Assembly (NCBI GenBank): GCA_965222615.1
Contig: CBDCUI010000008.1
Span: forward strand, 256,001 to 320,000
Direction of reading: 5' to 3'
Length of the DNA: 64,000 bases
DNA from: Gammaproteobacteria bacterium
GTDB taxonomy: Bacteria > Pseudomonadota > Gammaproteobacteria > UBA4575
The notes beneath the pieces are model-generated. The model made no database searches and was not told the origin of the DNA. It saw only the letters and a list, made by a program, of their open reading frames with translations. A program made the translations under genes and the position numbers. Shown here piece after piece: positions 6,384-38,804 of this stretch. Within the stretch, counting starts at the first letter, position 1. Each line of letters begins with the position of its first letter.

Positions 6384-6457
6384 AGAGAATATATACAGTA
6401 TAATTTAAAAATTAGATAAACTTCAGAATATAGTTTGAAATTAAGTTCAGTAAGTAA

Positions 6458-7291: not shown

Positions 7292-7447
7292 ATTAGCCAA
7301 CTGACTTTCGCAAACTCTCATTGGTATGAGGTAATGCACACTTTTTTAGTTAATAGTCAGCTACACTATGTGGTTGTTTATCAATGTAGTTAATTTCTTT
7401 TTATCGATGAATATGTTTTTCGCGGTTACTTTGTTAAATAAATACAA

Positions 7448-8662
7448 GTGAAAATAGTCCTCTACGTCAATACTTTCCTGCCACATGTGGGAGGGCGAGA
7501 GCTTGTTGTGCATCATCTGGCTCTGGCATTCAAGGGTCTAGGGCATCAAGTGAGAGTAGTTGGCCCTTCTTCTTGGTGGCGTACTAGAGGAGTTAAGTAT
7601 GAGTATCCCGTTCATCGTTATCCAACTTTTGCGGGTCGCAAATCATTAGCTAAACCCGGAATTAAAGCGCGGTTGCGTGAAGCAGAACTTCTTTTGCAAC
7701 TAGCTGTAGATTTGAAAATATGGGGCTGTGACATTATACATGCACATACAACTCACCCATCAGGCTATATTGCGACACGACTTAAAAAAAAGGGATCACA
7801 GACACCAGTAATCATCACGCCACACGGGATCGATATTCATCAGATTCCTGAGATTGGTCACGGCAAAAGACTGAATCCATTTTTACAACCAAAAATAGAA
7901 CAGGTATTACAAGATGCAGATGCCCTAACGGCAATCAGCGGTAGTATACGCGCGTCGCTTTTAGATGCGGGCGCTAACCCGAATAAAATATATCAAATAC
8001 CAAATGGAGTAGATATTAAACGTTTTCAACAGAAAACTAATACTGATGTTCGTAAATCTTTATCGCTACCAGAAGATGCGCGTTTGATCGTAACAGTAGG
8101 CAATTACAATCCGCGTAAGGGGCATGAGGTGCTAATCAACACGATGCCTTCAGTATTGAAACAAGAGCCTCGAGCAAAATTAGTGATTGTGGGTCGTGGT
8201 ACTAATGTTTTGAATTCTTTGGTTCAAAAACTTGGGTTAAATGATAGTGTCTTACTTTTGGGAGAGGTTAAGCTTCCTGCGAAACCAAACATGTATGAAG
8301 GAGGAGACAGGTTGGTTGATATTTATCGTAACAGTAGTGTCTACGTATCAGCTGGTATCGAAGAAGGTGCCGAGGGTCTTTCCTTAGCAGTCTTAGAAGC
8401 AATGGCATCAGGTTTGCCTATTATTGGTACTGATGTTTCAGGTAATAGGGATATTATTTTAAATGGAGAAAATGGTTTTCTGGTCCCTCCGTCAGATTCT
8501 CATCGATTATCAGATAAAATTCTAGAGATATTAAAAAATAATCATGTCCAAAATGAAATGGGAGACAAAGCCTTACAGACTGTACAAGATTTTAGTTGGG
8601 AAAAAATTGCCACTATGTATTTAGAACTTTATAAACAAATGTCTAGAATACAGAATGCATGA
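7448..8662 (+). CDS. Glycosyltransferase family 4
   Basis: IPNGVD, KGHE, EGLSLAVLEAMASGLPII. Confidence 0.92.
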   Translation: MKIVLYVNTFLPHVGGRELVVHHLALAFKGLGHQVRVVGPSSWWRTRGVKYEYPVHRYPTFAGRKSLAKPGIKARLREAELLLQLAVDLKIWGCDIIHAHTTHPSGYIATRLKKKGSQTPVIITPHGIDIHQIPEIGHGKRLNPFLQPKIEQVLQDADALTAISGSIRASLLDAGANPNKIYQIPNGVDIKRFQQKTNTDVRKSLSLPEDARLIVTVGNYNPRKGHEVLINTMPSVLKQEPRAKLVIVGRGTNVLNSLVQKLGLNDSVLLLGEVKLPAKPNMYEGGDRLVDIYRNSSVYVSAGIEEGAEGLSLAVLEAMASGLPIIGTDVSGNRDIILNGENGFLVPPSDSHRLSDKILEILKNNHVQNEMGDKALQTVQDFSWEKIATMYLELYKQMSRIQNA

Positions 8663-9479
8663 AGTGATGTATACGCATACTCATACACAAAATATACGTC
8701 CGATCAAAACATGGGCGCAATTTGATCGTAATATACGTTCAAAGGGATGTCGTCTATTAGATAAACTAGATAATTTTCCTAAATCAATTTTAGTTGCAGG
8801 TTGCCAACGTTCAGGAACAACTATTTTAGCTAGACTGATTACACAAAACGAGGAAATGGTCAATTACTGGTTTGGTCAAGATGATGAACTTGATGCGGCA
8901 TTAATACTTTCAGGGCATGTTAATCACAAACCCAGAGGTAGATACTGTTTTCAGACTACTTATCTCAACAATTGTGTGGAAGAATATTTTTCACATCAAG
9001 ATTTCAAATTGATATGGGTGCTGCGAAATCCTTTTTCAGTAGTATATTCTATGTTACACAACTGGCGCCGCTCTGCTCTTAATCGGCTTTTTAAATCATG
9101 TGGGTCAAAAATTCTTAATGGCAAGGAAAAACAAAGGTACAATCGATATGGGGTTTGGGCGACTAGACGAATTCATCGTGCTTGTTTTTCTTATAACGCT
9201 AAGGTGTCTCAAATATATGCGTTACAGAAAAATCTTAGTTCTGATCGATTACTGATTATTGACTATGAAGATTTAATTGCTGACAAGCAATATATGCTAA
9301 GCGCCATATATAAGTTTGCAGATCTAAAATTTAGTGACCACTATGCATTGCAATTAAGTGATAAGAGTGCAAACAAAGCAACCCGCTATCAGTCAAGTAA
9401 GGAAGCTGCATACGTAAAGTCTTTTTGCCAACCAGTTTATGATGAGGCCAAAGCACTGTTGTCAATTCGACCTGCTTAG
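8655..9479 (+). CDS. Sulfotransferase family protein
   Basis: AGCQRSGTT, RNPFSVVYS, YEDL; overlaps the upstream stop. Confidence 0.85.
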   Translation: MHEVMYTHTHTQNIRPIKTWAQFDRNIRSKGCRLLDKLDNFPKSILVAGCQRSGTTILARLITQNEEMVNYWFGQDDELDAALILSGHVNHKPRGRYCFQTTYLNNCVEEYFSHQDFKLIWVLRNPFSVVYSMLHNWRRSALNRLFKSCGSKILNGKEKQRYNRYGVWATRRIHRACFSYNAKVSQIYALQKNLSSDRLLIIDYEDLIADKQYMLSAIYKFADLKFSDHYALQLSDKSANKATRYQSSKEAAYVKSFCQPVYDEAKALLSIRPA

Positions 9480-9512
9480 CTCATATTTACATTTACGTGA
9501 ACACAAATAAAA

Positions 9513-10805
9513 ATGTCTTCTACTGCATATAACTCTGATTCAAAACTAAATATATTGTTTATTAGTTCAGATAAGTATCCACCTTTTCGTCCTGCAGCTA
9601 AGGCTATATATATGGAAGAGCTTCCCATGAGGGGTTATCGAATTGATTGGCTTTTACAGTCAGAGGGTGCTTGTAATAGTGATTACACTACTGTGAATGG
9701 TAGTGGAACTATTTACGTTGGTGCAACAGATTTGGGAAATTCGAGATTGTCGCGTATAAAAAAGCATATGCTTGATATCATTAATGATTACAAGTTATTT
9801 AAACTTGCAAAGCAGCGTCAATATGATGTGATACAGGTTAAAGATAAGTATTTGTCAACTTTAATGGCCATTGTTGCTGCAAAAAAGTTTGGAATTCCTC
9901 TGGTTTTTTGGATTGCTTTCCCTCATGCAGAAGCCTCGATTTATGAATCTAAAAAAGGCATAGCTAGATATAAGATTTTATATTGGCTTAGGGGATATAT
10001 TTTAAAGTTTCTACTTTACAAAATTATCTTTCCCGCAGCTGATCATGCATTTGTTCAGAGTGAACAAATGAAGCGGGATATCATCAATGAAGGAATTCAA
10101 GGCGAGAAGCTAACACCCATTCCGGGCTCAGTAAATTTAGAAGTAATACCATACAAAAAAAGGCCTACTACAAGTTCTAAAGTTGATGCTGATTCTATGG
10201 ATCAAAGTATTGTTTACCTTGGAACATTAAACCGGATGAGGCAACTTGATTTCATTATCAAAGCTTTTCAAATAGTCTTCGAGCAGTACCAGGAGGTTAA
10301 GCTCTATATGATTGGAAAAGGTGATATGGAGGATGATGAAATTTTTCTAAAATCCATAGTAGCTGAATTAGGGCTAAAAGAGGCAGTTGTGTTCACAGGG
10401 TATATGCCAATGAAAAAAGCATGGCAATACATTGAAAATGCTTCTGTATGTCTTTCCCCTTATTTTCCTACTCCAATTCTTAACTCAACTTCTCCTACCA
10501 AATTGATCGAATACATGGCGATGGGAAAAGCAGTAGTTGGAAATGATCACCCTGAACAAAAGCTTGTGATTGAACAAAGTGGAGCAGGAATTTGCACACC
10601 ATGGGAGGAGGCCGCATTTGCTCAGGCTATAATTACTTTATTAAAGAATCCAATCGAGACCAATACTATGGGGCTGAAGGGGAGACAGTATGTAGAAAAA
10701 TATCGTAGTAATAGTGCAATGGCTGGCGTAGTAGACACCACATATAAGCGAATTTGCGGTATTGACAATGTACAGATTATGACAGATTCAAGTCGCTTAG
10801 CTTAA
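9513..10805 (+). CDS. Glycosyltransferase family 4
   Basis: SPTKLIEYMAMGKAVV; YLGTL. Confidence 0.9.
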   Translation: MSSTAYNSDSKLNILFISSDKYPPFRPAAKAIYMEELPMRGYRIDWLLQSEGACNSDYTTVNGSGTIYVGATDLGNSRLSRIKKHMLDIINDYKLFKLAKQRQYDVIQVKDKYLSTLMAIVAAKKFGIPLVFWIAFPHAEASIYESKKGIARYKILYWLRGYILKFLLYKIIFPAADHAFVQSEQMKRDIINEGIQGEKLTPIPGSVNLEVIPYKKRPTTSSKVDADSMDQSIVYLGTLNRMRQLDFIIKAFQIVFEQYQEVKLYMIGKGDMEDDEIFLKSIVAELGLKEAVVFTGYMPMKKAWQYIENASVCLSPYFPTPILNSTSPTKLIEYMAMGKAVVGNDHPEQKLVIEQSGAGICTPWEEAAFAQAIITLLKNPIETNTMGLKGRQYVEKYRSNSAMAGVVDTTYKRICGIDNVQIMTDSSRLA

Positions 10806-10833
10806 GATCTCAATATAAATAGATGAGTTAAAA

Positions 10834-12054
10834 GTGTCTGGATTGCAAACAGATCAACACGATTTTATAGACGAAATTCGTTATGCCTATGTGAAAAACG
10901 GTGATGTCGTTGCACAGTTTGAAAGAATCTTAGCGGCTGGAGCTAAAAAAATAACTAGTGGGCCAGATGCTTTCATTTACGATTTTTTGCAAGCCGTGCA
11001 GAATAATCCAAAGCTACTTCTATCCAGAAGCACACGTAATGCCTTATTTCAAAAAGATGAAAGTGCAGTAAAGGCTAGAGTGTTTATGGAGCGCGGGCCT
11101 CATTTAGGTAGATTATTGCAAGGACCTGTCTCAACTATTCGGATTTTTTTGCATTTACTCTTATTTAGACCGCAACGAATATTGTGTGGAACCACAGGGG
11201 GCCCGTTGTGGGCTTGTTTTGTTATATCAAAGATTTTTTCTTCTCCATTGGTGCATTCTAGGCATAATCGAGTTTCCAGCAATGCAGAATCTTGGCACCG
11301 AAAGTTGTCGTTATGTATTGATCGTTGGTGCATTTGTCGTCTACAAGCCGTTATTTGCCATGGCCCTTTTCTTAAACAAGAGCTTTTGGATGTAGGTGTA
11401 CCAAAACATCGAATTTTCGAATTCGATGTGAGCTTTGATGATTTGCTCAAATGCAAACAGGAAGACCTGATAGCGTCTTACTACACAGATCTTATAGATT
11501 CTAGATTTATCTTGTACTTTGGTCGTATTGAGACTAATAAGGGGATTTTCGATCTATTAACTGCTTACATAGAAATACTTAAAGAAGATTCAAGTTTACA
11601 GCTAGTTTATGTAGGTACTGGATCGCAAATAGAAACACTTAAAGCCAAGATTGAAAAAGCTGGTTTATCTAAAAAAGTATTATTATTGGGAAAAGTTCCC
11701 CATGATGATCTTGTGCACATTATCAAGCTGAGTATTGCTGTGGTAACGCCTACTCGCTCTGATTTCCCTGAAGGTCGATGTATGGCTGCTATGGAGAGTT
11801 TAGTAATGGGAGTTCCTGTTATCGCACCAAATTTTGGTCCATTTCCATACTTGATTAACCATGGTTTGAATGGCTTACTGTATATCCCAGATTCAGTTCA
11901 AGATCTGAAATTAAAAATTTCAAATTTGTTGAGTGATAATGATCTATATATGAACTTGTCTGAAGGAGCGTGTAAAAGTGGGAAGCAACTAATGAATTCA
12001 GTTTCATTTAGTCAAGCAGTTAAAAATGCTTTTTCATTAAAAGATGTAAATTAA
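10834..12054 (+). CDS. Glycosyltransferase family 4
   Basis: YFGRIETNKG; EGRCMAAMESLVMGVPVI. Confidence 0.88.
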   Translation: MSGLQTDQHDFIDEIRYAYVKNGDVVAQFERILAAGAKKITSGPDAFIYDFLQAVQNNPKLLLSRSTRNALFQKDESAVKARVFMERGPHLGRLLQGPVSTIRIFLHLLLFRPQRILCGTTGGPLWACFVISKIFSSPLVHSRHNRVSSNAESWHRKLSLCIDRWCICRLQAVICHGPFLKQELLDVGVPKHRIFEFDVSFDDLLKCKQEDLIASYYTDLIDSRFILYFGRIETNKGIFDLLTAYIEILKEDSSLQLVYVGTGSQIETLKAKIEKAGLSKKVLLLGKVPHDDLVHIIKLSIAVVTPTRSDFPEGRCMAAMESLVMGVPVIAPNFGPFPYLINHGLNGLLYIPDSVQDLKLKISNLLSDNDLYMNLSEGACKSGKQLMNSVSFSQAVKNAFSLKDVN

Positions 12055-12070
12055 TTCAAAGGAATGGAAA

Positions 12071-12940
12071 TTGACGAGCCAGTTTCAATTGTGGAAGGAT
12101 AGAGCGCAGCGAGTACATGCAAGATCGTTACTTGCAGCTAATGATATAAGACGTGCATTTAATTGGTATGTTATGAATGACCGCGTTCATTACAAACAAC
12201 ATAGTCAAAATATTATAAATGATCATAAATGGTGTTTTATTGTTGGTTGCAATAATTCGGGTACCAGCCTAGTGCAAAGAATTCTGGAGCAATCCGGCCA
12301 GATAAGCACATTCCCTTTTGAGGGGCAACGTTACACTAGAACCTTAACACGTGCTTACAAACGTGGATATGAGCGTGTATGGAGTGAATATTTAAAGGAT
12401 CTTCGACTTACACAAGAAGATTCAAAAGCATGTGTGCCACGACTGGTTCACGATTGGGTAGAGTCAATGAAATCTCCACTTAGGGGAATAATTGTAGAAA
12501 AAACCACGGCGAATGCTGTACGAATGACTTGGTTACAAGAAGTATTTCCAAATAGTTATTTTATTGGAATTGTACGTAACGGTTATGCAGTAACAGAGGG
12601 TATTCGAAGAAAAGGAGGTAAGTCAGTCGAGCGTGGGGCTCGGCATTGGGATCTTGTAAATAAGATAATGATCAACGATGCGAAATCCGTAGCTAATTAT
12701 TTGGAAGTTCATTATGAAGATATAGCTGAAAGAAAACCAGACAGTATTCAAAAGTTAGCAAAATTTATTGATCTTGATAGTAAGCACTTTAATTTAGAAA
12801 CTTCCCGTGGACAAACTATTCGCAACTTTAATCATGAAAGCATTCAAAGGCTCTCTCGTGATGATATCGAAACCATACGATCTATTGCTGGAGAAATGCT
12901 TGAATATCACGGTTATTCGGCCTTAGTGGAAGGCGTATAA
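12071..12940 (+). CDS. Sulfotransferase family protein
   Basis: VGCNNSGTS, VEKT, RNGYAV, YED. Confidence 0.85.
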   Translation: MTSQFQLWKDRAQRVHARSLLAANDIRRAFNWYVMNDRVHYKQHSQNIINDHKWCFIVGCNNSGTSLVQRILEQSGQISTFPFEGQRYTRTLTRAYKRGYERVWSEYLKDLRLTQEDSKACVPRLVHDWVESMKSPLRGIIVEKTTANAVRMTWLQEVFPNSYFIGIVRNGYAVTEGIRRKGGKSVERGARHWDLVNKIMINDAKSVANYLEVHYEDIAERKPDSIQKLAKFIDLDSKHFNLETSRGQTIRNFNHESIQRLSRDDIETIRSIAGEMLEYHGYSALVEGV

Positions 12941-12971
12941 AGAATATTTTGAATGAGAACTAATTCAGGGA

Positions 12972-13784
12972 GTGTTTATGAAAACTTCGTTTATATATAT
13001 AGCATCCCTAAGGCGTACTGGCTCTACAGTGCTTAGCGAAGCGTTGACATCTCTCCCAGAGCGTTTCATCTTTAGGGAACCAAAGCTCGCAAAAAATAGA
13101 TTTACTGCAAAAAAGAGCGATATTGAACTATTGCGAAAATATGGAATCGACCTGCAGCCATTTGTAGATCGCTGGTCAAAAAAATCACCCATTCAACGAT
13201 GGGTAAAACATGGAAAGCTTATTTCAAAATTCAAATCAGAAATAATGCCACAGTTGCTTGCAGTTATTTCCCAAATTGGCGTAAAGGAAATCCATCATAG
13301 TAACTGGAAAGCATATTATTCCCACTTCCCTGATATGAAAATCATATTAACTGCACGAGATCCTAGGGATATATATATCTCCGTATACAATCGAGCAATT
13401 AAAGGCATAGGCACCTTTAAGTCGGGGTTATCTGCTAAGCAACTTGCGCGTGATTTAAATCGGGAATTTAAATGTCAGTTACAGATGTTCGATACAGGCT
13501 CAAGTATGAAAGTACGCTACGAGGATTTTTGTTTAGATAAAACAATCTTAAGCAATATATTGTCGTTTGTCGGAGATCAGTCGAATGCCATAGGTGATAT
13601 AGGTGCATTTAATGCTTTAAATCCTATTCGTCAAGAGGAATATAAGCTGCATGGAAATAAAATTTCAGATATTCGAGTTAACAGGTGGCAGCACGAGTCT
13701 GATTTAGAGGTTGTTGCTAATGCTCAGAAAGTATTCACATTAATGCCGGAATACACAGAGTTTTGGGGGTATAGGAGAGATTAA
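12972..13784 (+). CDS. Sulfotransferase family protein
   Basis: SLRRTGST, EP, RDPRDIYIS, RYEDF. Confidence 0.85.
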   Translation: MFMKTSFIYIASLRRTGSTVLSEALTSLPERFIFREPKLAKNRFTAKKSDIELLRKYGIDLQPFVDRWSKKSPIQRWVKHGKLISKFKSEIMPQLLAVISQIGVKEIHHSNWKAYYSHFPDMKIILTARDPRDIYISVYNRAIKGIGTFKSGLSAKQLARDLNREFKCQLQMFDTGSSMKVRYEDFCLDKTILSNILSFVGDQSNAIGDIGAFNALNPIRQEEYKLHGNKISDIRVNRWQHESDLEVVANAQKVFTLMPEYTEFWGYRRD

Positions 13785-13786
13785 TC

Positions 13787-14905
13787 TTGTGTTCCAAAAC
13801 AGCTAAAGAAAAAAAAGTTATCTGCATTATCATGGGAGGGCATTTTTCCGTCACGATTGGGGGAGCGCAATATCAAGCCAAATGCATTGTAGATGAGCTT
13901 AAGAAAGTCGAGAATTATGAAATTTACTATCTCGCGCGTGCTGTAGATTCCCAGTTTTATCCGCAAGGTTACCAAATTGTTAAAATTGCTGAACATAAAG
14001 GCTTAAGAAGGTATGCATTTTTTTTTGATGCTAGACGGTTACTTCGCCTTTTGAAAGATATTCGGCCAGATGTGATTTATCAGCGAGGATTAAAGTCTTA
14101 CACTGGGATTGCAGCTTATTATGCAAACAGACATTCTTGCAAAATGATTTTTCATACTGCCCATGATCGCAATGTGCAACCTAAAGTAACGAACTGGCTT
14201 ACACTACAGCTCCCTTTTCAAATCATTGAGAATTCAATTGCAGAATATGGTCTGAAAATGGTGGAGCATATTGTGGTTCAGACAAAACAACAGGCTGATA
14301 TGTTGCATAGTAATTATCAACGTGAGGTATCTGCCATTATTCCTAATTTTCATCCTTTACCTCACGAGACGATTGATAAGTCTGGGCCGATAAAAGTAGT
14401 GTGGGTTGCAAATTTTAAACCGATGAAACGTCCTGAGATTTTTGTGAAGTTAGCAAAAGATCTCCAGTATATTGATAAAGTAGAATTTATTATGGTGGGG
14501 AGGACAGGAGAGTCCAAATTATATGAAAATTTGCATAAAGAGATTTTACAACTGAAAAATCTAAATTATCTTGGTGAGATTCCGATTGAAGATGTGAACG
14601 AGTTACTAGCGTTGGCTCATATTTTTGTTAATACGAGTGTAGCAGAAGGGTTCCCTAATACCTTTATACAAGCCTGGATGCGCAAAGTACCCGTCGTTAG
14701 TATGACATTTAATGCTGATAATGTTCTGGATAAAAATGATATTGGATTTTTCGGAGGAACATATGAAGGTTTAAAGGCTGCTGTAAAAAAGTTGATAGAA
14801 GATAAAAAATTACAGTGCGAGATGGGGGAGCGGGCTCAGTCCTATGCCTTTGAGCATTATTCACCTAGAAATGTAAAAAAATTGATTTCTCTAATAGAGA
14901 GCTAA
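13787..14905 (+). CDS. Glycosyltransferase family 4
   Basis: WVANFKPMKRPE; EGFPNTFIQAW..VPVVS; start codon uncertain. Confidence 0.88.
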   Translation: MCSKTAKEKKVICIIMGGHFSVTIGGAQYQAKCIVDELKKVENYEIYYLARAVDSQFYPQGYQIVKIAEHKGLRRYAFFFDARRLLRLLKDIRPDVIYQRGLKSYTGIAAYYANRHSCKMIFHTAHDRNVQPKVTNWLTLQLPFQIIENSIAEYGLKMVEHIVVQTKQQADMLHSNYQREVSAIIPNFHPLPHETIDKSGPIKVVWVANFKPMKRPEIFVKLAKDLQYIDKVEFIMVGRTGESKLYENLHKEILQLKNLNYLGEIPIEDVNELLALAHIFVNTSVAEGFPNTFIQAWMRKVPVVSMTFNADNVLDKNDIGFFGGTYEGLKAAVKKLIEDKKLQCEMGERAQSYAFEHYSPRNVKKLISLIES

Positions 14906-14917
14906 TGAAGGATTAAA

Positions 14918-15844
14918 GTGTCTAAGATCATTATACATTTAGGGTTACACAAAACGGCAACTGGAACGCTACAACGGCAGTTTTTCCCTGCGTGTGAAGG
15001 ATTAAATCTTCTCACTACTAGAAAACCAATGATAAAGGCATTTGTAGAAGAGGTCACGAGGCGTGATCCACTTTTTTTTGATATAGAAAAAGCTAAAGAG
15101 CTTTTTTTTTCTGAAGTTAATACACAAAAAATAAACCTGTTATCGAATGAATCTTTATCGGGGCCGCCATATGCAGGTGTTATTGAAGCGGGCCTGGATC
15201 ACCGTTCACCAGTGCTACGTAATTTAGCTAGTGTATTACCAGATTCCAAAGTGATATTAGTGTTGCGAAAGCAAGATGCACTTGCAAAATCGTTTTATCG
15301 ACAATACCTCAAATCTGGTGGTACTCGAGGAGTGCGGAGATTTTATGGTTTCGAAACAGATAAGGGTCCAGCGTTGATGTCCTTAGATCGCTTTATTTAT
15401 TCTAAATATGTCGATGCAATCGTTACTTTTTTTCGGGCGGAGGTTTTAATATTACCGTTTGAAGAATTCATTCGAAATCAGCCCTTATTCCTGAAAAAAA
15501 TTACCAATTTTATAGGCGTACCCATGCCTAATATTGAGCTTAAGCAGGAGAACGCTACACGTCTTGGTCCGCTAGGCATGGAAGTCAGTCGTATGTTGAA
15601 TCATTTGTTCCGTAGTTTGCTTAATCCTGGTGGAATATTGCCAGGAATTGACCCGGCACGAGAAGGAGCTAATTATCGAATAAGCCCAGTTCAATTATTG
15701 CATGACAAATGGCCTAAAGCTGGCAAAATCAAAGAAGGTGAGGTTTTTCAAGTTGCATCTCAAATATTTAAGATGGTGCAAGAAGATAATGAAGTGCTGG
15801 ATAATAAATTTAATCTGAATCTTAAAAGCTATAACTATTATTAG
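14918..15844 (+). CDS. Sulfotransferase-like protein (paralogue 1)
   Basis: HLGLHKTATGTLQ, SNESLS, LRKQD...SFYRQ. Confidence 0.78.
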   Translation: MSKIIIHLGLHKTATGTLQRQFFPACEGLNLLTTRKPMIKAFVEEVTRRDPLFFDIEKAKELFFSEVNTQKINLLSNESLSGPPYAGVIEAGLDHRSPVLRNLASVLPDSKVILVLRKQDALAKSFYRQYLKSGGTRGVRRFYGFETDKGPALMSLDRFIYSKYVDAIVTFFRAEVLILPFEEFIRNQPLFLKKITNFIGVPMPNIELKQENATRLGPLGMEVSRMLNHLFRSLLNPGGILPGIDPAREGANYRISPVQLLHDKWPKAGKIKEGEVFQVASQIFKMVQEDNEVLDNKFNLNLKSYNYY

Positions 15845-15929
15845 TGTTAAATAATAGTAAATGTTTAATCTATATATAACTTGCCAAATTTTATCTATTT
15901 TAATGATCTAGTGTGATCTTGTAGTAAAA

Positions 15930-16853
15930 GTGACAAATATATTTCTGCATATTGGCTTGCATAAAACTGCAACAACCACCTTACAGCAGCAGTTTTTCCC
16001 AGTTTGCAAAGAGTTGAATTATATTTCTAGAGTGCCTGTTATCAGTGAATTCAAGCGTGCAGTAGTAACCAGTGACCCGATATTTTATGATGCTGAAAAT
16101 CAACGCAAACTGTTATCTCCATATTTGCATCATGATCTTCCAAATCTGTTATCTGCTGAATCTTTTTCTGGTGCTTTATACGCTGGATTAATAAAGCATG
16201 GCTTAGACCATCGTTCTTCAATATTAGAAAATTTAAAGGCATCGCTACCGGAGGCTAGAATCATTATTGTTTTGAGAAGACAAGATAGGCTCGCAAGATC
16301 TTTATATCGACAATATCTTAAGCGAGGTGGGACGGCAAGCGTAGATAAATTTTATGGACTTGATACCAAAACAACAGCTATGTTTCCCTTGAATCGTTTT
16401 CGATTTAGCCCGTATGTTGACAAGCTTGCGAGTTGTTTTCCGGCTGGCGTTCTAGTACTTGTTTTTGAAGAATTTTTAGAACAACAATCTGTATTTCTAA
16501 AAAAATTATGTGATTTTATAGATATACCAGTACCAAATATCGTGCTTACAAAGAGCAACCAGACTAGTTTGGGGCCTGCTGGTATGGAACTTAGCCGTAT
16601 CTTAAACAAGTTTTTTAAGAGTCACTTAAATCCAGATGCATTAATACCCAAGATCCCGAAGATAAGAAACCGTTACATTGAATGGACTTGGCCTTCATTT
16701 ATACTGCATGAACATTGGCCTTTTCGAGGCACTCACAATATAGAAAGTCAGCTTTATAAAATAAGTGATGTGATTTTAGATAGAGTTCGTGACGACAACC
16801 GCATTCTTGATAATCGCTATAATCTTGATCTTAGCAGGTATAATTATTATTGA
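15930..16853 (+). CDS. Sulfotransferase-like protein (paralogue 2)
   Basis: HIGLHKTATTTLQ, SAESFS, LRRQD...SLYRQ; collinear with the upstream gene. Confidence 0.78.
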   Translation: MTNIFLHIGLHKTATTTLQQQFFPVCKELNYISRVPVISEFKRAVVTSDPIFYDAENQRKLLSPYLHHDLPNLLSAESFSGALYAGLIKHGLDHRSSILENLKASLPEARIIIVLRRQDRLARSLYRQYLKRGGTASVDKFYGLDTKTTAMFPLNRFRFSPYVDKLASCFPAGVLVLVFEEFLEQQSVFLKKLCDFIDIPVPNIVLTKSNQTSLGPAGMELSRILNKFFKSHLNPDALIPKIPKIRNRYIEWTWPSFILHEHWPFRGTHNIESQLYKISDVILDRVRDDNRILDNRYNLDLSRYNYY

Positions 16854-16998
16854 ACCTGACCCATATAAAATAGGTAATATTTATTTTATCAAATAGCGAA
16901 AAATCAATAATCAGATTATTGAGCCTCTATCTAATTTTCTTAGCTTCATATTCTGTTTTTTTATTGACCATGAGGTCTAGGTATAGAGTGCAAGGCCC

Positions 16999-17940
16999 TT
17001 AATTATTGGTTATACGGATATTTGTTGGCGGTTTAAGTGTGTCATTAGCAGATGTTGACACTGATGCATTGCCACTAGGTGCGACATCGTTATACTTTGC
17101 ATTTGATCCTTTAGCAATGCGTAGTTCATCATGGTAGAAAGTTCGGCTTACGATGTCGGCATCGTAACTTATACCTGCAGCATTCTTTTTTCGCCAATCC
17201 GTTTTATATAATCCAATTTTCATATAAGGTGCTTTTTGGTCATTATAATTGTTAGGCCCAGCCTTGCTGATTACTTTTTTACCGTCTTTCCAAACTTCTA
17301 GAATGCCATCACCTTTATAAGACCACTTTATATGAAATACCCAATCTATCCATTTACCACGTTGATAGCTTCCCAAATCCCAGTGTTTGGTGCCTAATTC
17401 CGGATCATGTTTTGAGCCAATAGCATTAGGGTTCCAGCGATTTACTACTACAAGTTTTGTGTTATGAATCTGTAACGATAAGGGAGGTCCACCAATACCA
17501 CCATTCGTTTCTCCCAGATGTTGGTCAGGGGAATGGTGCCACTGTAATATAGTATCTCCTGCGCGCGAGTCGGGGGAATGATTATTAGGAATTAATACAC
17601 TAATGCCGTACCAGTAATGTTGACCCTGTTGAGTATTTTCTCTAACTTCACCTCGGGGAACTGCTTCAGTTCGATATGAAACATCACTTGTCTTGCGATT
17701 TAAATAGGTTTTGAGCGCTTTTTTACCTGATCGGGTATATTCAGTAGTAATAACTGTACAGTTTCCTGAGCAACGTCCCCACTTATTAGAATTTGGAGGA
17801 TTATTTACTGAACCACTTTCGAAATCTTCATTAAATATCATTGTGGCAAACACTGACTGCATACATGCAATCGTTACTAATAAGCCTAATAAAAGTATTA
17901 CATTTAAAACGGATAACGATTTGAGCTTAGTTATAAACAC
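16999..17940 (-). CDS. Exported polysaccharide lyase family protein (heparin lyase I-like jelly roll)
   Basis: Signal peptide; EDFESG, RTE, WYGIS, QWH, GKWIDWVFHIKWS..G.LEVWKDG, PYMKIGLY, DE.RI. Confidence 0.8.
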   Translation of the reverse strand: MFITKLKSLSVLNVILLLGLLVTIACMQSVFATMIFNEDFESGSVNNPPNSNKWGRCSGNCTVITTEYTRSGKKALKTYLNRKTSDVSYRTEAVPRGEVRENTQQGQHYWYGISVLIPNNHSPDSRAGDTILQWHHSPDQHLGETNGGIGGPPLSLQIHNTKLVVVNRWNPNAIGSKHDPELGTKHWDLGSYQRGKWIDWVFHIKWSYKGDGILEVWKDGKKVISKAGPNNYNDQKAPYMKIGLYKTDWRKKNAAGISYDADIVSRTFYHDELRIAKGSNAKYNDVAPSGNASVSTSANDTLKPPTNIRITNN

Positions 17941-18261
17941 AGTGCCTCCACAAAAAGTTGAAGTTTTTTAAATTTAGGTAACAGAAATTAAATGTTATTA
18001 TTACGTTATTATTAAATTCTTAAGGTATAAGATTGTAACTAGAAAAATAGTACTAACTTAGTTTTTAGCTAATCAAGTACTAAATATAGCAAATCAAATA
18101 ACCGCATTCATGTATATATCAATATCTAGGACGAATGGTTACATTTTCTTGATATACGGTTCTGTATAGCTTGCAACAACTATTTATAAATAGTGGGTCT
18201 ATTTCAGATACGAATGTCGGTCATTATCAGCGGTTGTCAATGAGATTTAACACCTAGATTT

Positions 18262-19611
18262 ATGCAGTTTTTAGTCTATTTGCTCTTTGCAAGTATTTTT
18301 CTGCTTGATTTTCTGGAGCGGTACGATTTTATCGTTCGCCAAATGACATGGATACCTGAGTTGTTATCGATGGTTGCCTTACTTATTGTGCTACTCAGAG
18401 CATCAAGACAAAAAGTAGTTTTTATAAGCTTTCCCTACCTCATCCTTTTCTTGATGATTGGCTTACATATACTTTTGGGTGTGATATTAAACAATACACC
18501 TCTATTTGCTTTGTTTAGTGGAATTCGTGCTTATTTTAGGTATCTTCCGTTTTTTCTGCTGCCGGCGGTATTTGCATTTAGTGAGACCGATATGGCAAAA
18601 CAATTAAAGCTGTTACTTATATTTTCTATTTTGCAATTACCTGTTGCTCTCTATCAACGTTTTATAGAGTCAGCAGGTTTATTGACAGGAGATTATGTGG
18701 GTGGGACCTTGCAAAATCCTGCACATTTATCCACTTATTTACTTTGTGCAGTGTCTTTTGTTATAGCTTTTTATCTGAAAAAGAGGTTATCACTTGGTCA
18801 ATTCTGTATATTGCTGGTTATACTGTTTTTACCAACAACACTTAATGAATCAAAAGGCTCATTAATTTTATTACCTTTCGCTTTATTAGCGCCTGTGTTT
18901 TTTTTAGGCCGTGGAAAAAAGAGGTTAAAAAATTTAATGGGTATAGGGTTAATAGGGATAGTTTTTCTGAGTGTATTCATTCCTGTATATGACCATTTTA
19001 TGAAGCCACGATGGGGGTATGGGATAGTAGAGTTTTTTACTACCGAAGGGCGAGTTTTAGGTTATCTAAAAAAGAGTGAGCGTAAAATAGAAGAAGGGAA
19101 AGAAGGGCGTATTGATTCAATCATTTTGTCTTATGAGGCACTCTCGAAAGATCCTGTAAAGCTTGTTTTTGGATTTGGTATCGGTAATGTATCCAAGTCA
19201 TTTCTAGGGGATAAATTTGCAGGAGAATACAATGAGACGTATGGGGAATTGAAGGGTCCAACTCTACCTCATCTACTTTGGGAAATTGGGTACTTGGGAG
19301 CCGCATTCATGATTGTGTTTTGTTTTTTGATTCTACGTGATGCGCTATACCTTAGAAATCAACCCGGGTTAGTGAGCGCTATTGGGCTAGGATGGGCTAG
19401 TGTCATGATAGTATTCATGGTAGCTCTTATGTATAAGAATATGATTTATTCAAATGTTCTAGGGTATCTGTCGTGGTATTTTTCCGGATATGTGATGGCT
19501 ACTGCAGTGCGATTTAGAGCTTTCGCGCATAATCCATTATCGACAATAGAGCAGCAATCTTCGCTGCATGATCAGCAGAGAAAAAGAACAGGTTTAGCTA
19601 ATCTCAGGTGA
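18262..19611 (+). CDS. Multi-pass membrane protein, Wzy/O-antigen ligase-like
   Basis: About 10-12 hydrophobic segments, GTL.N, FGFGIG and L.EIG.LG motifs; locus context. Confidence 0.7.
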   Translation: MQFLVYLLFASIFLLDFLERYDFIVRQMTWIPELLSMVALLIVLLRASRQKVVFISFPYLILFLMIGLHILLGVILNNTPLFALFSGIRAYFRYLPFFLLPAVFAFSETDMAKQLKLLLIFSILQLPVALYQRFIESAGLLTGDYVGGTLQNPAHLSTYLLCAVSFVIAFYLKKRLSLGQFCILLVILFLPTTLNESKGSLILLPFALLAPVFFLGRGKKRLKNLMGIGLIGIVFLSVFIPVYDHFMKPRWGYGIVEFFTTEGRVLGYLKKSERKIEEGKEGRIDSIILSYEALSKDPVKLVFGFGIGNVSKSFLGDKFAGEYNETYGELKGPTLPHLLWEIGYLGAAFMIVFCFLILRDALYLRNQPGLVSAIGLGWASVMIVFMVALMYKNMIYSNVLGYLSWYFSGYVMATAVRFRAFAHNPLSTIEQQSSLHDQQRKRTGLANLR

Positions 19612-19712
19612 TATGGTTGGAAATTTCTAAAACTGCCGAAGCATACTTATAAATTAGAATGTTTACTCATTAGATACTGTCACATACCTAGTACCAATAT
19701 AGATACAAAATC

Positions 19713-20561
19713 ATGCAGTCGGAGAAGAATGGAACGTATTTAAAGAATGAAAGAGAGATTCTGGCGTTTGCACATATAGGCAAAACTGGTGGAACAACCT
19801 TAATACATATTCTTCGGCATAATTATTTTGCTAGATGTATTGATGTTGTACCGTTTTCAAAAGTGGACGATAAAATTTTTCGTGCAGATGATATGAGAAA
19901 AATTTTGCGAATAAATCCGTTTACAGAATGTATAATGGGGCATTCTGTTAAACCACATAGTGATCTAACAGAGACATTCCCCAACGTTAAATATATCACA
20001 TTACTAAGAGACCCTATTCACAGGTGTATATCACAATATCAGCAACGTGTTAGAAAATATGGGTTTGTAAATTTTGAGGAATTTCTCACTCGTGAGTGGT
20101 TACGTAATTTGCAAACTAGATTTATCGCTGGAAGAGAAGATATAACTCAAGCAAAAGCAATATTATCTGAAAGGATTTCTCTTGTAGGGTTATTAGAGAA
20201 CTTTGATGAATTTTTAGTATTACTTTCAAAGAAAGTATTACCGAAAACTTTTAATCCAGCATATAAAATTAAACGTGAATCAAAAAACAAGGATGCTAAG
20301 AATAGACTACTACGCAAACATTTGGAGCAGATTAAAGAATTGCATCAACTTGATTTGGAGCTATATAAATATGCCAAAGAAGAGCTGATTCCTGAATATA
20401 AAAAGTCATATGGTGATAGTTTTGAGCGCGATGTTCAAAATTTTAAGCAAGCAAATCAGGCAATAAATCGCACAAATGGAAAACACTATGCGGATTACTT
20501 GCTTAGAAAACTATATTATGAGCCGGCAAAAGCATTTGTCAGGTTACTTCCAATGGCGTAA
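19713..20561 (+). CDS. Sulfotransferase family 2 protein
   Basis: HIGKTGGTT, GH, LRDPIHRCISQY, NLQTR, LDLELY. Confidence 0.88.
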   Translation: MQSEKNGTYLKNEREILAFAHIGKTGGTTLIHILRHNYFARCIDVVPFSKVDDKIFRADDMRKILRINPFTECIMGHSVKPHSDLTETFPNVKYITLLRDPIHRCISQYQQRVRKYGFVNFEEFLTREWLRNLQTRFIAGREDITQAKAILSERISLVGLLENFDEFLVLLSKKVLPKTFNPAYKIKRESKNKDAKNRLLRKHLEQIKELHQLDLELYKYAKEELIPEYKKSYGDSFERDVQNFKQANQAINRTNGKHYADYLLRKLYYEPAKAFVRLLPMA

Positions 20562-20662
20562 TCTCAAAACGAGTGTGTTTTGACCGTTATACTAAAATTA
20601 ATTTGCTATACAACACATAACGAGACCAAGGTGCGGACTGAGGCAAGGTTTTAGAGAAGCGG

Positions 20663-21535
20663 ATGACACTGCCAAACTTCATTATTATAGGTGCTAAAAA
20701 AGCTGGCACTACCTCATTATATAATTATTGCGATCAGCATCCAGATGTGTATATGAGTCCATTAAAAGAAGCGCGATTTTTTATGTACGATGAGACTAAT
20801 CCAGAACATCGAAGAAAGCCAAATCAAGTATTTCCAATAAGAACCACCGATCAGTATCAAGCGTTATTTGCTGACGCAAGAGGTCAGAAAATACGTGGTG
20901 AAGCATCGCCCGGATATCTGGTTAGTAGAGTGGCTCCAGATAAAATGCATGCTCTAATTCCGAACGTAAAACTAGCAGTGAGCTTACGTAATCCAGCTGA
21001 CCGCGCATACTCGAACTATTTGATGAGAGTACGTTCGGGTCAAGAGATATGGTGTTTAGATAATATTGTTAATGAGCAAGCTCACTGGTTACAAACAAGT
21101 TTCTACTATGAGAATATAAAGAGATATTTTGACCTTTTCTCACATGAACAAATCCACGTTATTCTTTATGACGATCTCAGAAGAGATGGGGTATATGTAG
21201 CAAGAGACTTATACAAATTTTTGGGTGTAGATGAGCAATTTCTTCCAGATGTATCATTCCACTATAATGTTAGTGGTATTCCAAAAACTAAATTATTGCA
21301 CCGAATATATAGTAGACTTTATCAAAATCATCCTAGATTTAAAATTATAGTTAAAAAATTCTTGCCTCAAAAAGTGCGTCGCACGGTTACTAAGATAAGG
21401 CAATCTAATTTAAAGAAACCACCCTCTCTTCCACCTGCTTTACGCAATGAGTTAGTTAGATATTACAAGGAAGATGTGTTGAGGTTGCAGGAGTTGATTC
21501 AACGTGATCTTTCAGGCTGGCTGCAAACTTCGTGA
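20663..21535 (+). CDS. Sulfotransferase family protein
   Basis: PNFIIIGAKKAGTTSL, GEASPGY, LRNPADRAYS. Confidence 0.92.
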   Translation: MTLPNFIIIGAKKAGTTSLYNYCDQHPDVYMSPLKEARFFMYDETNPEHRRKPNQVFPIRTTDQYQALFADARGQKIRGEASPGYLVSRVAPDKMHALIPNVKLAVSLRNPADRAYSNYLMRVRSGQEIWCLDNIVNEQAHWLQTSFYYENIKRYFDLFSHEQIHVILYDDLRRDGVYVARDLYKFLGVDEQFLPDVSFHYNVSGIPKTKLLHRIYSRLYQNHPRFKIIVKKFLPQKVRRTVTKIRQSNLKKPPSLPPALRNELVRYYKEDVLRLQELIQRDLSGWLQTS

Positions 21536-32278: not shown

Positions 32279-33271
32279 CTAACTCCCACTTACATCAGCA
32301 AGAAAGTTAGTAGCATTATTTTCATTAGTGCCAAAATAAACATAATAACCATCAACGTCTCCACTAACCTTATCCCAAGAAACGGTTAAGCTCTGGTCAT
32401 TGTTGATTGTTCCACATATGGTCTTAGAAAAATCAGATTCCGTTACGGTATTGTATGATTTAATACTAAAACAAACACTTTTTCCTTTTTCTAAACCCAG
32501 ATCGAGTAACGGATTAGTTGTGTGAGAACGTACGTTTTCTCCAAGAGTATCCGGTGATACTTCGAGAGATGTATCTTTAGTGGAACTGTATGTATCAGGA
32601 GTACTTGTAGAGAGTGCCGCACCTATTAGTGTGGCAGCCTCAAGACTTATATAGCTTCTAACATTATTATCATACCGATTGGTAAGTGTGTATCTTATAG
32701 TTAAGGTTTGCCCACTTGAAGCAGCTCGATAATTTAAAGTGTAAATGCGGCTACTTTTATCGCTAAGCTGTTTGATTTGAGTAGTGAAGGGAGTCGTACT
32801 TCCGTCACTTAAAGCAACCTCAAGTTGGCCACTTGCTTTTTTAATTCCTACAAACAGCTTCAAGGTTTTAGTCGTAGTATCTGCTGGTACTTTTAGTTCA
32901 AATCCGTTTCCAATTTTTAATATACGAAAAGCACTTTTGGTTGAATTATTGGTGTTGAGCGTTCCATCGGTCCATGAATAGTTGCTAGCAGTGCCATATA
33001 ATTCTCTAGGAGTTTCGTTGCCTATAATGGCAACATCACTGATCTGTGGTATAACTCCTGTCTTACGATCAGTTAAGGCGGGTCGCGGACCATAGTGAAC
33101 CCAATCGTCTGATCCGCTGGAAAGATATACTTCGTATGGGCTTTTACCCGACGCTACAGAAAGGGCGCCTGTATTACTATTGGCTTGGACAGTTGATATA
33201 AAGGATAAATCGATTAAATGGCTTAGTGTTAATGTTATAACGAAACCAAGCAATTTCACAGTACTTTTCAT
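32279..33271 (-). CDS. Exported protein: uncharacterised beta-rich domain + C-terminal permuted FN3-like domain (paralogue A)
   Basis: ATG 33271 with GGAG upstream, matching the start of paralogue B; signal-like segment to VQA; shared C-terminal domain. Confidence 0.75.
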   Translation of the reverse strand: MKSTVKLLGFVITLTLSHLIDLSFISTVQANSNTGALSVASGKSPYEVYLSSGSDDWVHYGPRPALTDRKTGVIPQISDVAIIGNETPRELYGTASNYSWTDGTLNTNNSTKSAFRILKIGNGFELKVPADTTTKTLKLFVGIKKASGQLEVALSDGSTTPFTTQIKQLSDKSSRIYTLNYRAASSGQTLTIRYTLTNRYDNNVRSYISLEAATLIGAALSTSTPDTYSSTKDTSLEVSPDTLGENVRSHTTNPLLDLGLEKGKSVCFSIKSYNTVTESDFSKTICGTINNDQSLTVSWDKVSGDVDGYYVYFGTNENNATNFLADVSGS

Positions 33272-33635: not shown

Positions 33636-34082
33636 TTAGCTTTCGATTACATCTGCAAGGAAGTTAGCAACATTATTTTTGTTCTTGCCAAAATAAACAT
33701 AGTAACCGTCAACATTTCCAATAACGTCTTCCCATGAAAGGATTAAGCTATTATCGTTGTTGATTTTTCCACATATGGCTTTTGAGAAATCAGATTCTGT
33801 GACGTTATTATATGATTTAAGTCGAAAACAGATGTTTTCACCTTTTTCTAATCCAAGGTCACGTAGGGGATTTATTTCAATTGAGTTAGGTAACCCTGAG
33901 GTCAAGGGAGGTGTTGTTTTTGGTGTGCGTTTAAATTCTGTATTGGGTTTGGCCCCAGGTGTCGCTGAAGCTATATTAGGTACACCTTCGGCGGTAGATG
34001 GTGAACTACTATCACCACCGCACCCATAAAGACTAAATGTGATTACCACATATAGAGCAAGCAATTTTACAGTGCATTTCAT
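33636..34082 (-). CDS. Lipoprotein with Pro/Thr linker + permuted FN3-like domain (paralogue B)
   Basis: Lipobox LYG|C followed by GGDSSS; P/T-rich linker; shared C-terminal domain. Confidence 0.78.
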   Translation of the reverse strand: MKCTVKLLALYVVITFSLYGCGGDSSSPSTAEGVPNIASATPGAKPNTEFKRTPKTTPPLTSGLPNSIEINPLRDLGLEKGENICFRLKSYNNVTESDFSKAICGKINNDNSLILSWEDVIGNVDGYYVYFGKNKNNVANFLADVIES

Positions 34083-34315: not shown

Positions 34316-34900
34316 TCATAACACATCAGTAAGAAAATTATTAGTACGTTTGGCTGAGCTTCCAAAATATACATGGTAGCCTATTGTAGGGCCTGAACTT
34401 TCAGCCCAAGAGAGCTTAAAATTCTTTGAATTTTTTATGTAAGTACATGCGGGCGATGAAAATGCTGATATTTCTGTGTTTGAATAAGCTTTCACTCTAA
34501 AACATACATAGCCCTTATCAATTCCAAGATCACGTAATGGATTGATATTAGTGTGAGTTGGTGGGGCGCCATTTTTTACGATTTTCTTCTTAGAAGTTTT
34601 CTTTTTAGCGGTCTTTTTCTTCTTAGAAGTTTTCTTTTTAGCAGCTTTTTTCTTCTTAGAAGTTTTCTTTTTAGCGGTCTTTTTCTTCTTAGAAGTTTTC
34701 TTTTTAGCAGTCTTTTTCTTCTTAGCAGCTTTCTTTTTAGCAGCTTTTTTCTTTGCCGCAGCTTTGGTATTTACTTTAGAATTGGATATTTCATTTGATT
34801 TAGCGAAGCTACTTGGTGGGCTAATAAATCCTGTAAGGCTTACTAATAAAAACGTTAAAACCAAGGGCCGCATTAGTTTTACAAGAGAGCTAGAATTCAA
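34316..34900 (-). CDS. Exported Lys-rich protein + permuted FN3-like domain (paralogue C)
   Basis: GAGGAGG RBS 5 nt before TTG; hydrophobic signal to SFA; KKKKTAKKKTS repeats; shared C-terminal domain. Confidence 0.78.
   Translation of the reverse strand: MNSSSLVKLMRPLVLTFLLVSLTGFISPPSSFAKSNEISNSKVNTKAAAKKKAAKKKAAKKKKTAKKKTSKKKKTAKKKTSKKKKAAKKKTSKKKKTAKKKTSKKKIVKNGAPPTHTNINPLRDLGIDKGYVCFRVKAYSNTEISAFSSPACTYIKNSKNFKLSWAESSGPTIGYHVYFGSSAKRTNNFLTDVL
34582..34765 (-). repeat. Coding tandem repeat: about 4 x 33 bp (KKKK[T/A]AKKKTS) plus AAKKK units
   Basis: Repeated ttttcttcttagaagttttctttttagc on the + strand. Confidence 0.9.
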
Positions 34901-35047
34901 GTTATCCTCCTCAAATTGAAATAGAGTTTTATTTTTTGATTGGTTATTGAAATCTTTGTGAGACTAGTTGGGAATAGTAGGACACAGTTAGTTGGTATTC
35001 TCATAATTTTATGAAGAATCAAATGCTTATTGTCTGTTCAAAAATTT

Positions 35048-35576: not shown

Positions 35577-37028
35577 ATGAGGCGTAAACAAGAAGTGGTC
35601 GAAAAATCACAAGCGTTATCAGTAGCTTCAAGTGGTTATTTGCCTCGAACGATAACCTTTGGACTGATTAAATTGTGGAGTTGGCTCACCCCGCCATTAG
35701 TTGCTGTAGCAACTTTATTACTTACCATGGCCTTATATGACATCCCCATGAGGGATGCATATCAGAATCTTGCAGTGATTACTTTCCTGGTCACGTTTTT
35801 TATATTTCGTGAAGTTGAATCGGTTAGACCAAAAGACGATAGTGGCTTTCAATCTAACACTAGTAATCTTCTATTGGCTTGGACCTTGATTGTAGGTGTT
35901 TTGCTTCTTATTGGCTACGCTACGAAATATTCCCATATTTACTCTCGTTTAGCTCTGTTCACATGGTTTACGATTACTCCCTTACCACTCCTGCTATCGC
36001 AAATAGCACTTAACCGTCTCAATATTGCTTTGGTACAAAGTACGGGGAATACGCGTAGAGCAGTAGTCGCTGGCGTAACAGAAATAAGTCGCAGATTGGT
36101 GAAACAGTTTGTACAAGACGAAAATCTTGCGACGGAATTTATAGGATATTTTGAAGATCGTAATGCAGAACGTATAGGGTCATTGGAGCATGGCAGAGTA
36201 ATTGGAGATCTCAGCAGTTTATCTGATTATGTCACTCAGAATAATATCGATGTGATTTATATTACTTTACCTATTCGACATCTCGAGCGTACTAAAAAGT
36301 TACTAGACAAATTACATGATACAACCGCATCAATTTATTTTGTGCCAGATATATTTGTATTCGATTTAATTCAAGCTCGTACCTATAATATAAATGGCAT
36401 CCCCGCTGTGTCATTATGCGAAACACCTTTTGTTGGTTTATCAGGCGTATTAAAACATGTAAGTGATTTTGTGATTGCAGGCATCGCAGTGACGTTAACC
36501 GCGCCACTCATGCTTTTGATAGCATTAGGCATCAAGCTTACCTCTAAAGGACCTATATTTTTTAAACAGCGTCGCTATGGTTTAGATGGCCATGAAATTA
36601 TTGTGTATAAGTTTCGTACCATGCATGTTTCTGAAGATGACGATGAGATCACGCAAGTCACACGTAATGATCCACGGGTTACCAAGTTAGGGGCTTTTTT
36701 AAGAAAATATTCGTTAGATGAGCTTCCTCAGTTTATCAATGTTCTGCAAGGCAGAATGAGTGTAGTAGGGCCGCGACCCCATGCTGTGGTACATAACGAA
36801 ACTTATCGAAAAGTTATTAAAGGTTACATGATACGACATAAAGTATTACCTGGTATAACGGGTTTGGCTCAAGTAAGTGGTCTACGTGGTGAGACTAGTA
36901 AGGTCAAACATATGGAAGAACGAATTGAATTAGATCTCGACTATCTTAGACATTGGTCATTACAGTTGGATATCCAGATTATATTTAAGACGATTATGAC
37001 AGTCTTAAGTAGCAAGAACGCCTACTAA
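35577..37028 (+). CDS. wcaJ: Undecaprenyl-phosphate glucose phosphotransferase (priming transferase)
   Basis: N-terminal TMs; FFKQRRYG, YKFRTM, DPRVT, SLDELPQFINVLQG.MSVVGPRPHA, PGITGLAQV. Confidence 0.9.
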   Translation: MRRKQEVVEKSQALSVASSGYLPRTITFGLIKLWSWLTPPLVAVATLLLTMALYDIPMRDAYQNLAVITFLVTFFIFREVESVRPKDDSGFQSNTSNLLLAWTLIVGVLLLIGYATKYSHIYSRLALFTWFTITPLPLLLSQIALNRLNIALVQSTGNTRRAVVAGVTEISRRLVKQFVQDENLATEFIGYFEDRNAERIGSLEHGRVIGDLSSLSDYVTQNNIDVIYITLPIRHLERTKKLLDKLHDTTASIYFVPDIFVFDLIQARTYNINGIPAVSLCETPFVGLSGVLKHVSDFVIAGIAVTLTAPLMLLIALGIKLTSKGPIFFKQRRYGLDGHEIIVYKFRTMHVSEDDDEITQVTRNDPRVTKLGAFLRKYSLDELPQFINVLQGRMSVVGPRPHAVVHNETYRKVIKGYMIRHKVLPGITGLAQVSGLRGETSKVKHMEERIELDLDYLRHWSLQLDIQIIFKTIMTVLSSKNAY

Positions 37029-38790: not shown

Positions 38791-38804
38791 GATTAATTAA
38801 AAAC

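Follow-up and report, generated by a model that had tools for sequence, protein, structure and literature searches.

The 64,000-nucleotide stretch of DNA analysed here (the window), from an uncultured, marine-type gammaproteobacterium, carries, inside a polysaccharide locus rich in sulfotransferase genes, a gene for a predicted exported protein (the K-protein) that appears to consist of two parts, a disordered polylysine-like tract followed by a small, disulfide-bearing domain of circularly permuted fibronectin type III (FN3) type. This second part, the last ~77 residues of the protein, was overlooked by the initial annotation and is common to the next two genes on the same strand. By analogy with lysine-repeat proteins that bind sulfated glycans, we propose that the K-protein attaches by charge to the sulfated polymer that its own locus makes, probably as an arm of a three-protein tethering set, a reading to which we give about an even chance of being right. 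The parts of the gene are as follows.

34316..34900, minus strand: gene for the exported polycationic protein (K-protein), 194 aa from TTG 34900
34906..34912, minus strand: Shine-Dalgarno sequence GAGGAGG, 5 nt 5' of the TTG start
34802..34900, minus strand: predicted signal peptide, residues 1-33
34583..34765, minus strand: polylysine-type tract, residues 46-106
34582..34753, unstranded: 33-bp tandem repeat array
34319..34573, minus strand: C-terminal circularly permuted FN3-like module, strands E-F-G then B-C-C', no A, with two conserved Cys

A second allele of the gene (contig C4, described below) retains the TTG start as well as the Shine-Dalgarno sequence, and gene callers elsewhere have used an alternative start at ATG 34873, giving 185 aa (P0004). 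By inspection and hydropathy, the N-terminus has the three parts of a Sec (type I) signal peptide: a basic n-region (K8/R11), an h-region (LVLTFLLVSLTGF) whose 13-residue hydrophobic core lies within the 10-15 residues expected of such signals and reaches a peak Kyte-Doolittle mean of 2.39, and a c-region, SPPSSFA before KS, with small residues at -3 and -1 that place the predicted cut between A33 and K34. The same pattern recurs in orthologues, in keeping with the hydrophobic signal-like segment that had initially been described ahead of the tract, and we conclude that the K-protein is Sec-exported as predicted from this signal peptide. No outer-membrane secretion or sorting signal (PEP-CTERM, T9SS CTD) was matched in the protein by Pfam or NCBIfam, and its C-terminus is a beta strand in the AlphaFold2 model, without the hydrophobic helix that PEP-CTERM needs; the Sec signal, the only export signal recognised, reaches by itself across the inner membrane. 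The surroundings of the gene gave little else. Promoter-like and terminator-like sites between 32000 and 35700 occurred at chance levels (16 against 14.6 expected, and 2 against 1.9, respectively), Rfam had no match in 32000-36000, and none among the RNA sequencing runs listed contained the sequence. An F/L-rich ORF of 81 aa lying antisense to the lysine tract (34553-34798, plus strand) is a mirror of the AAA/AAG codons and no gene.

The tract itself contains 38 Lys, 12 Ala, 7 Thr and 4 Ser with no Asp or Glu, a net charge of about +38 over 61 residues, which agrees with the initial count of about 38 lysines in 62 residues and no acidic one. The 33-bp tandem repeats reported at the same time were recovered by Tandem Repeats Finder (period 33, 5.2 copies, 92% matches, score 288) and code for 11-residue units, for example KTSKKKKTAKK. 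AlphaFold2 modelled the tract as disordered (pLDDT < 50), and it holds seven matches to XBBBXXBX, a heparin-binding sequence pattern. This genome (G000) is AT-rich and has K-rich tails on cytoplasmic proteins as well, so that lysine tracts arise easily in it. Three such proteins, none with an export signal, are a zinc-finger protein of DksA type whose N-terminus is a long AKK/PKK tract (C9:704695-705666), a stand-alone KRKT-repeat protein of ~160 aa (C7:124909-125397) and topoisomerase I, with a K-rich C-terminal tail (C7:659693-662137).

A composition of this kind naturally brings to mind the cytoplasmic histone-like DNA binders of the Hc1/Hc2/AlgP kind, and the protein had indeed been called histone-like. 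The AKK-type composition behind that name stands, and an HC2 label (PF07382) had been precomputed for one orthologue, P0008. However, hmmscan of the window protein against Pfam at E <= 0.01 gave no match to an Hc1, Hc2 or H1 model, returning only sub-threshold compositional hits to DUF4778, Vfa1 and PA26. A cytoplasmic role would also have to accommodate a signal peptide kept in orthologues, a disulfide-type FN3 module and exported paralogs. Since the K-protein carries an export signal, we do not regard it as a cytoplasmic DNA binder, and hold that identity to be extremely unlikely.

The repeat might have been an artefact of assembly, as the initial annotation had allowed. Public contigs that match the window exactly cover it piecewise in this region (34502-34611, 34615-34677 and 34681-34883), and a 151-nt record from a separate study covers 34623-34773 with 0 differences; no single public record spans the whole of the tract, and the copy number of 5.2 is as assembled. 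The same assembly holds a second copy of window positions 31842-37706, 85% identical, on the 7.5-kb contig C4. Its K gene has 91% DNA identity to that of the window, with 94% identity in the C-terminal region (residues 112-194), and its tract has been shortened by two 21-bp indels and rebuilt as (AAKKK)n. C1-C4 and C6, five of the assembly's six small contigs, are shadows of the three large contigs, to which they are 85-96% identical, the remaining one (C5) having no match of at least 300 bp to them. In public contigs the depth of the divergent allele is below that of the window allele (in X2, 7.4-9.6 against 22-27; in X1, 2 against 3.8-3.9). Because the small contigs shadow the large ones and the divergent allele is at lower depth, C4 is more likely a piece of a co-assembled second strain than a true second copy of the cassette, although these observations amount to a hint; a paralogous duplication of the cassette was set aside for the same reasons. 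Between the two probable co-assembled strains the tract differs in length by 14 residues, the C4 tract being the shorter. The pieces of the second strain would include C2 and C4, which carry a variant form of the polysaccharide genes.

Comparison across orthologues shows that the polycationic character first described for the window protein is kept while the repeat unit changes. Among the 20 K-clade members scored (P0014, whose pattern was missed, lies outside the 20 and is visibly K-rich), the net charge of the linker is between +9 and +50 in 16, with few or no acidic residues, +6 in one and +1 or less in three. The units vary by lineage (KSKSANKKKGK, KKSNSSKKKSKTA, KKSKSSKKKTA, AAKKKKSNKKS, KKKSTSKKKTT, AAKKV), and some orthologues have long ARATAKATAAKKA-type tracts of up to ~190 residues. 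Linkers of the lipoprotein clade in the same loci are near neutral (-4 to +2).

Another way to view the tract is as a neutral flexible spacer left by replication slippage in an AT-rich genome, with the module alone being of consequence. The other K-rich tracts of the genome would fit with this, as would the hypervariability of the tract and its absence from three of the 20 scored members (P0006, P0015 and P0038). Spacers in the lipoproteins, however, are P/T/S-rich and neutral, whereas 16 of the 20 K-clade members reach their charge of +9 to +50 with unrelated units. That charge is kept while the units are unrelated and the lipoprotein linkers are neutral points to selection on charge rather than to a slippage spacer, which we consider improbable, and argues for a tract conserved as charge rather than as sequence. 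The three members without a cationic tract nevertheless indicate that it is dispensable for the role of the module.

The module was modelled by AlphaFold2 (16-row alignment) as a beta-sandwich of six strands with a pLDDT of 88-97. Its cysteines, C133 and C152, are invariant in 14 modules and present also in small relatives with the canonical strand order (P0018-20, P0060, P0075, P0084 and P0101), and the invariance of the pair fits an oxidising, non-cytoplasmic compartment. When the module proteins of the window were compared with canonical relatives by BLASTP, six of six gave a pair of HSPs whose order was exchanged: strands E-F-G, the front half of the module that carries both Cys and the CF-R-K-Y motif, align to the extreme C-terminus of the canonical relatives, and the second half (B-C-C', W...GYxVYFG) aligns to a part upstream. 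The A strand is absent because only five residues link G to B. A profile made from the 14 modules and run against 1.84 billion representatives matched 1295 proteins at E <= 1e-3, mostly giant multi-FN3 proteins that were matched by separate half-profiles, and ~28 small proteins with one full-length C-terminal match, which constitute the permuted family. These profile matches place the parts of the module as homologues of FN3 (PF00041), and alignments and model together identify the whole as a circularly permuted FN3 domain. It would be a clear natural case of such a permutation, in which the canonical-order relatives can still be recognised by sequence. A relative of 285 aa (P0070) has the reversed arrangement: the permuted module follows the signal peptide at the N-terminus, and a short linker rich in K and N then leads to a beta-rich domain at the C-terminus.

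As a canonical FN3 domain, with strands A-B-C-C'-E-F-G and a model score above the cut-off, the module does not qualify: Pfam fn3 did not match the K-protein, and on a paralog it scored 16.5 bits against a cut-off of 25, over the B-C strands only. Neither Pfam nor NCBIfam has a model for the module, the latter giving far-sub-threshold compositional matches alone, and Protein Atlas returned FN3-flavoured leads at 0.91-0.93 and nothing beyond. Foldseek found no PDB match to the K-protein model at E <= 1e-3, and the wide VIA-align search reached a best Z of 6.0, to generic Ig/FN3-like sandwiches, which neither names the fold nor shows it to be new. Weak structural matches are to be expected here, because the aligners are sequential and the strand order is permuted.

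The two neighbouring genes that share the module are as follows.

33636..34082, minus strand: paralog 2, a lipoprotein of 148 aa with lipobox LYGC and Gly at +2, a neutral P/T/S linker and the permuted FN3 module
32279..33271, minus strand: paralog 3, 330 aa, with a signal peptide, a beta-sandwich of ~180 residues, an S/T linker and the permuted FN3 module

Because the module is common to these two exported paralogs, the K-protein would be one arm of a three-gene cassette. Paralog 2 is an outer-membrane-type lipoprotein, and its lipobox, LYGC and then GG, is kept in P0022, P0031, L015, L016 and L019. In paralog 3 the N-terminal domain (residues ~36-216) is modelled as a beta-sandwich at a pLDDT of ~90, with a hyaluronan-binding module (4d0q) as its top PDB match (E 3.7e-4, TM 0.44 on the target) and CBM22, 16, 61, 35 and a porphyran-binding CBM among the further matches. 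Since these fold matches are weak, 'CBM-like' is a label that we use as a lead only. Complex prediction for the lipoprotein module with the K-protein module gave a score of 0.00, which is no answer in either direction. The permuted FN3 module may be a common handle, carried by a polycation, a lipid-anchored lipoprotein and a carbohydrate-binding-like protein, and the three proteins, with their three holds (lipid, glycan-binding domain and polycation), would together tether or cross-link the polymer at the envelope.

The polymer in question would be the product of the surrounding genes, identified by their Pfam matches.

5478..21535, plus strand: sulfotransferase stretch, 7 ORFs over the Pfam cut-off and 1 borderline, among GT4 glycosyltransferases
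5478-6383, 6458-7291, 8655-9479, 12071-12940, 12972-13784, 19713-20561 and 20663-21535: the sulfotransferase ORFs
16999-17940, minus strand: polysaccharide lyase
27516-29483, minus strand: heparinase II/III-like protein
29651-30964, plus strand: UDP-glucose dehydrogenase
30915-32150, plus strand: GT4 glycosyltransferase
35577..37028, plus strand: priming sugar transferase (CoA_binding_3 and Bac_transf), divergent from the K-protein gene

The borderline sulfotransferase ORF (15930-16853) scores 27.0 bits against a gathering cut-off of 27 bits, and no stretch of it passes alone. With at least seven sulfotransferase genes, a UDP-glucose dehydrogenase, several GT4 glycosyltransferases, a heparinase-like protein and a lyase, the sulfated-polysaccharide setting proposed by the initial annotation is upheld. 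We infer the structure of the polymer and its sulfation from gene content alone; as UDP-glucose dehydrogenase is a source of uronate, the polymer is probably uronate-bearing. The genome's single Wza-type (Poly_export) match (C8:230596-230823) lies on the same contig ~25 kb before the window, so that the surface-polysaccharide region may span ~60 kb. At the edge of the locus, positions 135-1349 (plus strand) encode a GDSL-lipase/acylhydrolase joined to PKD and F5/8 type C (galactose-binding-like) domains, possibly a polymer-modifying esterase. On the other side, at 38011-41431 (minus strand), we noted a RiPP-modification-like set comprising DoxX, an FkbM-type methyltransferase, an MbnB/TglH/ChrH-family enzyme and a DUF2063/NGO1945 partner. 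This set also adjoins the locus in L009 and L020, and a search of 39671-39893 gave no convincing precursor ORF for the MbnB/DUF2063 pair.

Much of this arrangement recurs in relatives, which, where named, are uncultured MAGs labelled Thiotrichales or Gammaproteobacteria. On a closed MAG chromosome (L009) the upstream order is DoxX, MbnB-like, DUF2063, DUF6580 and priming transferase, followed divergently by the K-protein (235 aa), the lipoprotein and a third module protein with a GH115_C-like N-domain, and after the cassette by a GT4 glycosyltransferase, UDP-glucose dehydrogenase and a sulfotransferase. Two metagenome loci (L015 and L016) have the transferase, K-protein, lipoprotein, GT4 and sulfotransferases, with UDP-glucose dehydrogenase and a heparinase-like protein in L015 as well; L019 begins at the lipoprotein and continues in like order, and L020 ends in the K gene with the window's upstream genes present. 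The priming transferase is thus a neighbour of the K gene in L009, L015, L016 and L020, the contig-truncated copy in L016 matching CoA_binding_3 only. Four loci include the K gene together with 5 kb or more of the sequence downstream of it (the window, L009, L015 and L016). They are syntenic kin and not independent, and all four have sulfotransferases on that side, at distances of 0.8 to 12.8 kb from the gene.

Across the order's 56 genomes, which form one family, the module is present in six and its K-type form in four; the range of the K-protein is therefore narrow, being limited to a few uncultured genomes. At least three PF13469 matches are found in 5 of the 6 genomes with the module against 1 of the 50 without it, a comparison among kin rather than independent genomes. 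The exception, G022, holds a K-type protein and no visible sulfotransferase in an assembly of 240 contigs, while G008 and G020 have a lipoprotein-type gene beside sulfotransferases without a K-type protein. A 4.8-kb contig of a Thiotrichales-labelled MAG (L007) shows the K gene locally amplified, with four module genes in a row, one lipoprotein and three K-type, the cationic tracts of the latter being quite different from one another.

Taken with this setting, the tract could bind the sulfated, uronate-containing polysaccharide made by the locus electrostatically and independently of sequence, much as the lysine-rich repeats of the mycobacterial adhesin HBHA act on heparan sulfate, and expansion or contraction of the repeat would shift its length and charge between strains. 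The initial annotation had cast the protein as a secreted counter-ion. The export signal and the polycation kept in orthologues agree with that description, but the shared module makes the protein look like an arm of a cassette and not a free counter-ion. Polylysine, however, binds any polyanion, and the tract might instead fix the module to some other envelope or matrix polyanion, for instance extracellular DNA or the phosphates of lipopolysaccharide, leaving contact with the glycan to the FN3 module or the CBM-like paralog. The lipoprotein paralog is held to the membrane by its N-terminal anchor, so that the K tract could be an electrostatic equivalent, and a glycan-binding-like domain is already present in paralog 3. 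Such an anchor would nonetheless leave the strict linkage to sulfotransferase loci unexplained, as LPS and DNA occur in all relatives, and we rate it as unlikely, though with some weight.

Two further roles need to be weighed against binding of the locus's own polymer at the envelope. Given that only a Sec signal, and no outer-membrane secretion signal, is recognised, and that a single Wza-like gene lies on the same contig, the K-protein might stay in the periplasm and neutralise or chaperone the newly made sulfated chain as it travels to the Wza-type channel. We know of no precedent for protein escort of a nascent polysaccharide, however, a stoichiometric escort would be costly, and some lineages have the locus but do without the tract, making an escort quite improbable. 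Alternatively, the protein might be a secreted polycationic weapon or adhesin directed at other cells or at foreign sulfated glycans, from which the producer is protected by its own sulfated coat. Polycations such as polylysine and protamine are membrane-active, and lysine repeats of the HBHA type are adhesins for foreign sulfated glycans. The cassette nevertheless comes without a toxin, immunity or secretion-system gene, and the K gene lies inside a biosynthetic locus; we therefore find this role very unlikely.

Binding of the locus's own polymer by the K-protein can be extended to a more ambitious picture, which we regard as doubtful but worth stating. The sulfated polysaccharide would be held and condensed in a proteoglycan-like coat by the three proteins that share the permuted FN3 handle: one anchored in the outer membrane by its lipid, one gripping the glycan with its CBM-like domain, and the third a genetically tunable polylysine that neutralises and cross-links it by complex coacervation. 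If so, bacteria would have a counterpart to the animal matrices and secretory granules in which cationic proteins are paired with sulfated glycosaminoglycans. Few bacteria make sulfated exopolysaccharides, which are sought as heparin-like biomaterials, and we know of no account of what keeps polymers of such high charge at the cell, compacts them or organises them there. An exported polycation encoded by the locus itself, its charge kept while its repeats turn over, would, if the proposal holds, be a simple and testable organising principle, and the K-protein would be a natural polylysine-type reagent for sulfated glycans.

Among known systems, the Lys/Ala tandem repeats of chlamydial Hc1/Hc2 and of Pseudomonas AlgP (H1-like AKK/KPAA repeats) resemble the K-protein in composition, and AlgP is linked to an acidic exopolysaccharide, alginate. 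These are, however, cytoplasmic DNA binders or regulators without export signals, in contrast to the signal peptide and extracellular-type domain of the K-protein, which we accordingly place, as judged from its sequence, outside the Hc1/Hc2/AlgP group. PF00041 domains of secreted bacterial proteins match both halves of the module in their FN3 strands, and RbmA, the FN3-built matrix scaffold of Vibrio cholerae, is among its weak fold matches (Z 4.7); the module differs from both in placing E-F-G before B-C-C' and in missing the A strand. The cyanobacterial synechan xss cluster and that of Pontiella are likewise polysaccharide loci with several sulfotransferases, and their abstracts do not mention a dedicated polycationic protein. 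A word search of the open-access literature turned up neither this family, nor a naturally permuted FN3 domain, nor a matrix polycation that has a sulfated polymer as its partner.

The closest functional analogue of the K-protein would be the lysine-rich heparin-binding domain of HBHA. In HBHA the tract is C-terminal, behind a coiled coil at the N-terminus, and there is no classical signal peptide. One paper (PMC3293801) describes HBHA and the laminin-binding, histone-like protein as surface or exported proteins with disordered Lys/Ala tandem repeats through which sulfated glycans are bound by charge; in HBHA the lysine-rich repeats bind sulfated glycoconjugates and are polymorphic between species. 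The K-protein shares with such adhesins a Lys-rich tandem repeat (38 K/61), but no HBHA-like region is evident in the window protein when the two are compared by description, and we do not consider it a member of the HBHA family. Its tract lies between the signal peptide and the FN3-like domain and is far more lysine-dense than that of HBHA, and its presumed target is the cell's own polymer, whereas that of HBHA is host heparan sulfate. We rate the proposed binding of sulfated glycans by lysine repeats as known in kind, and the permuted FN3 module as what would be new.
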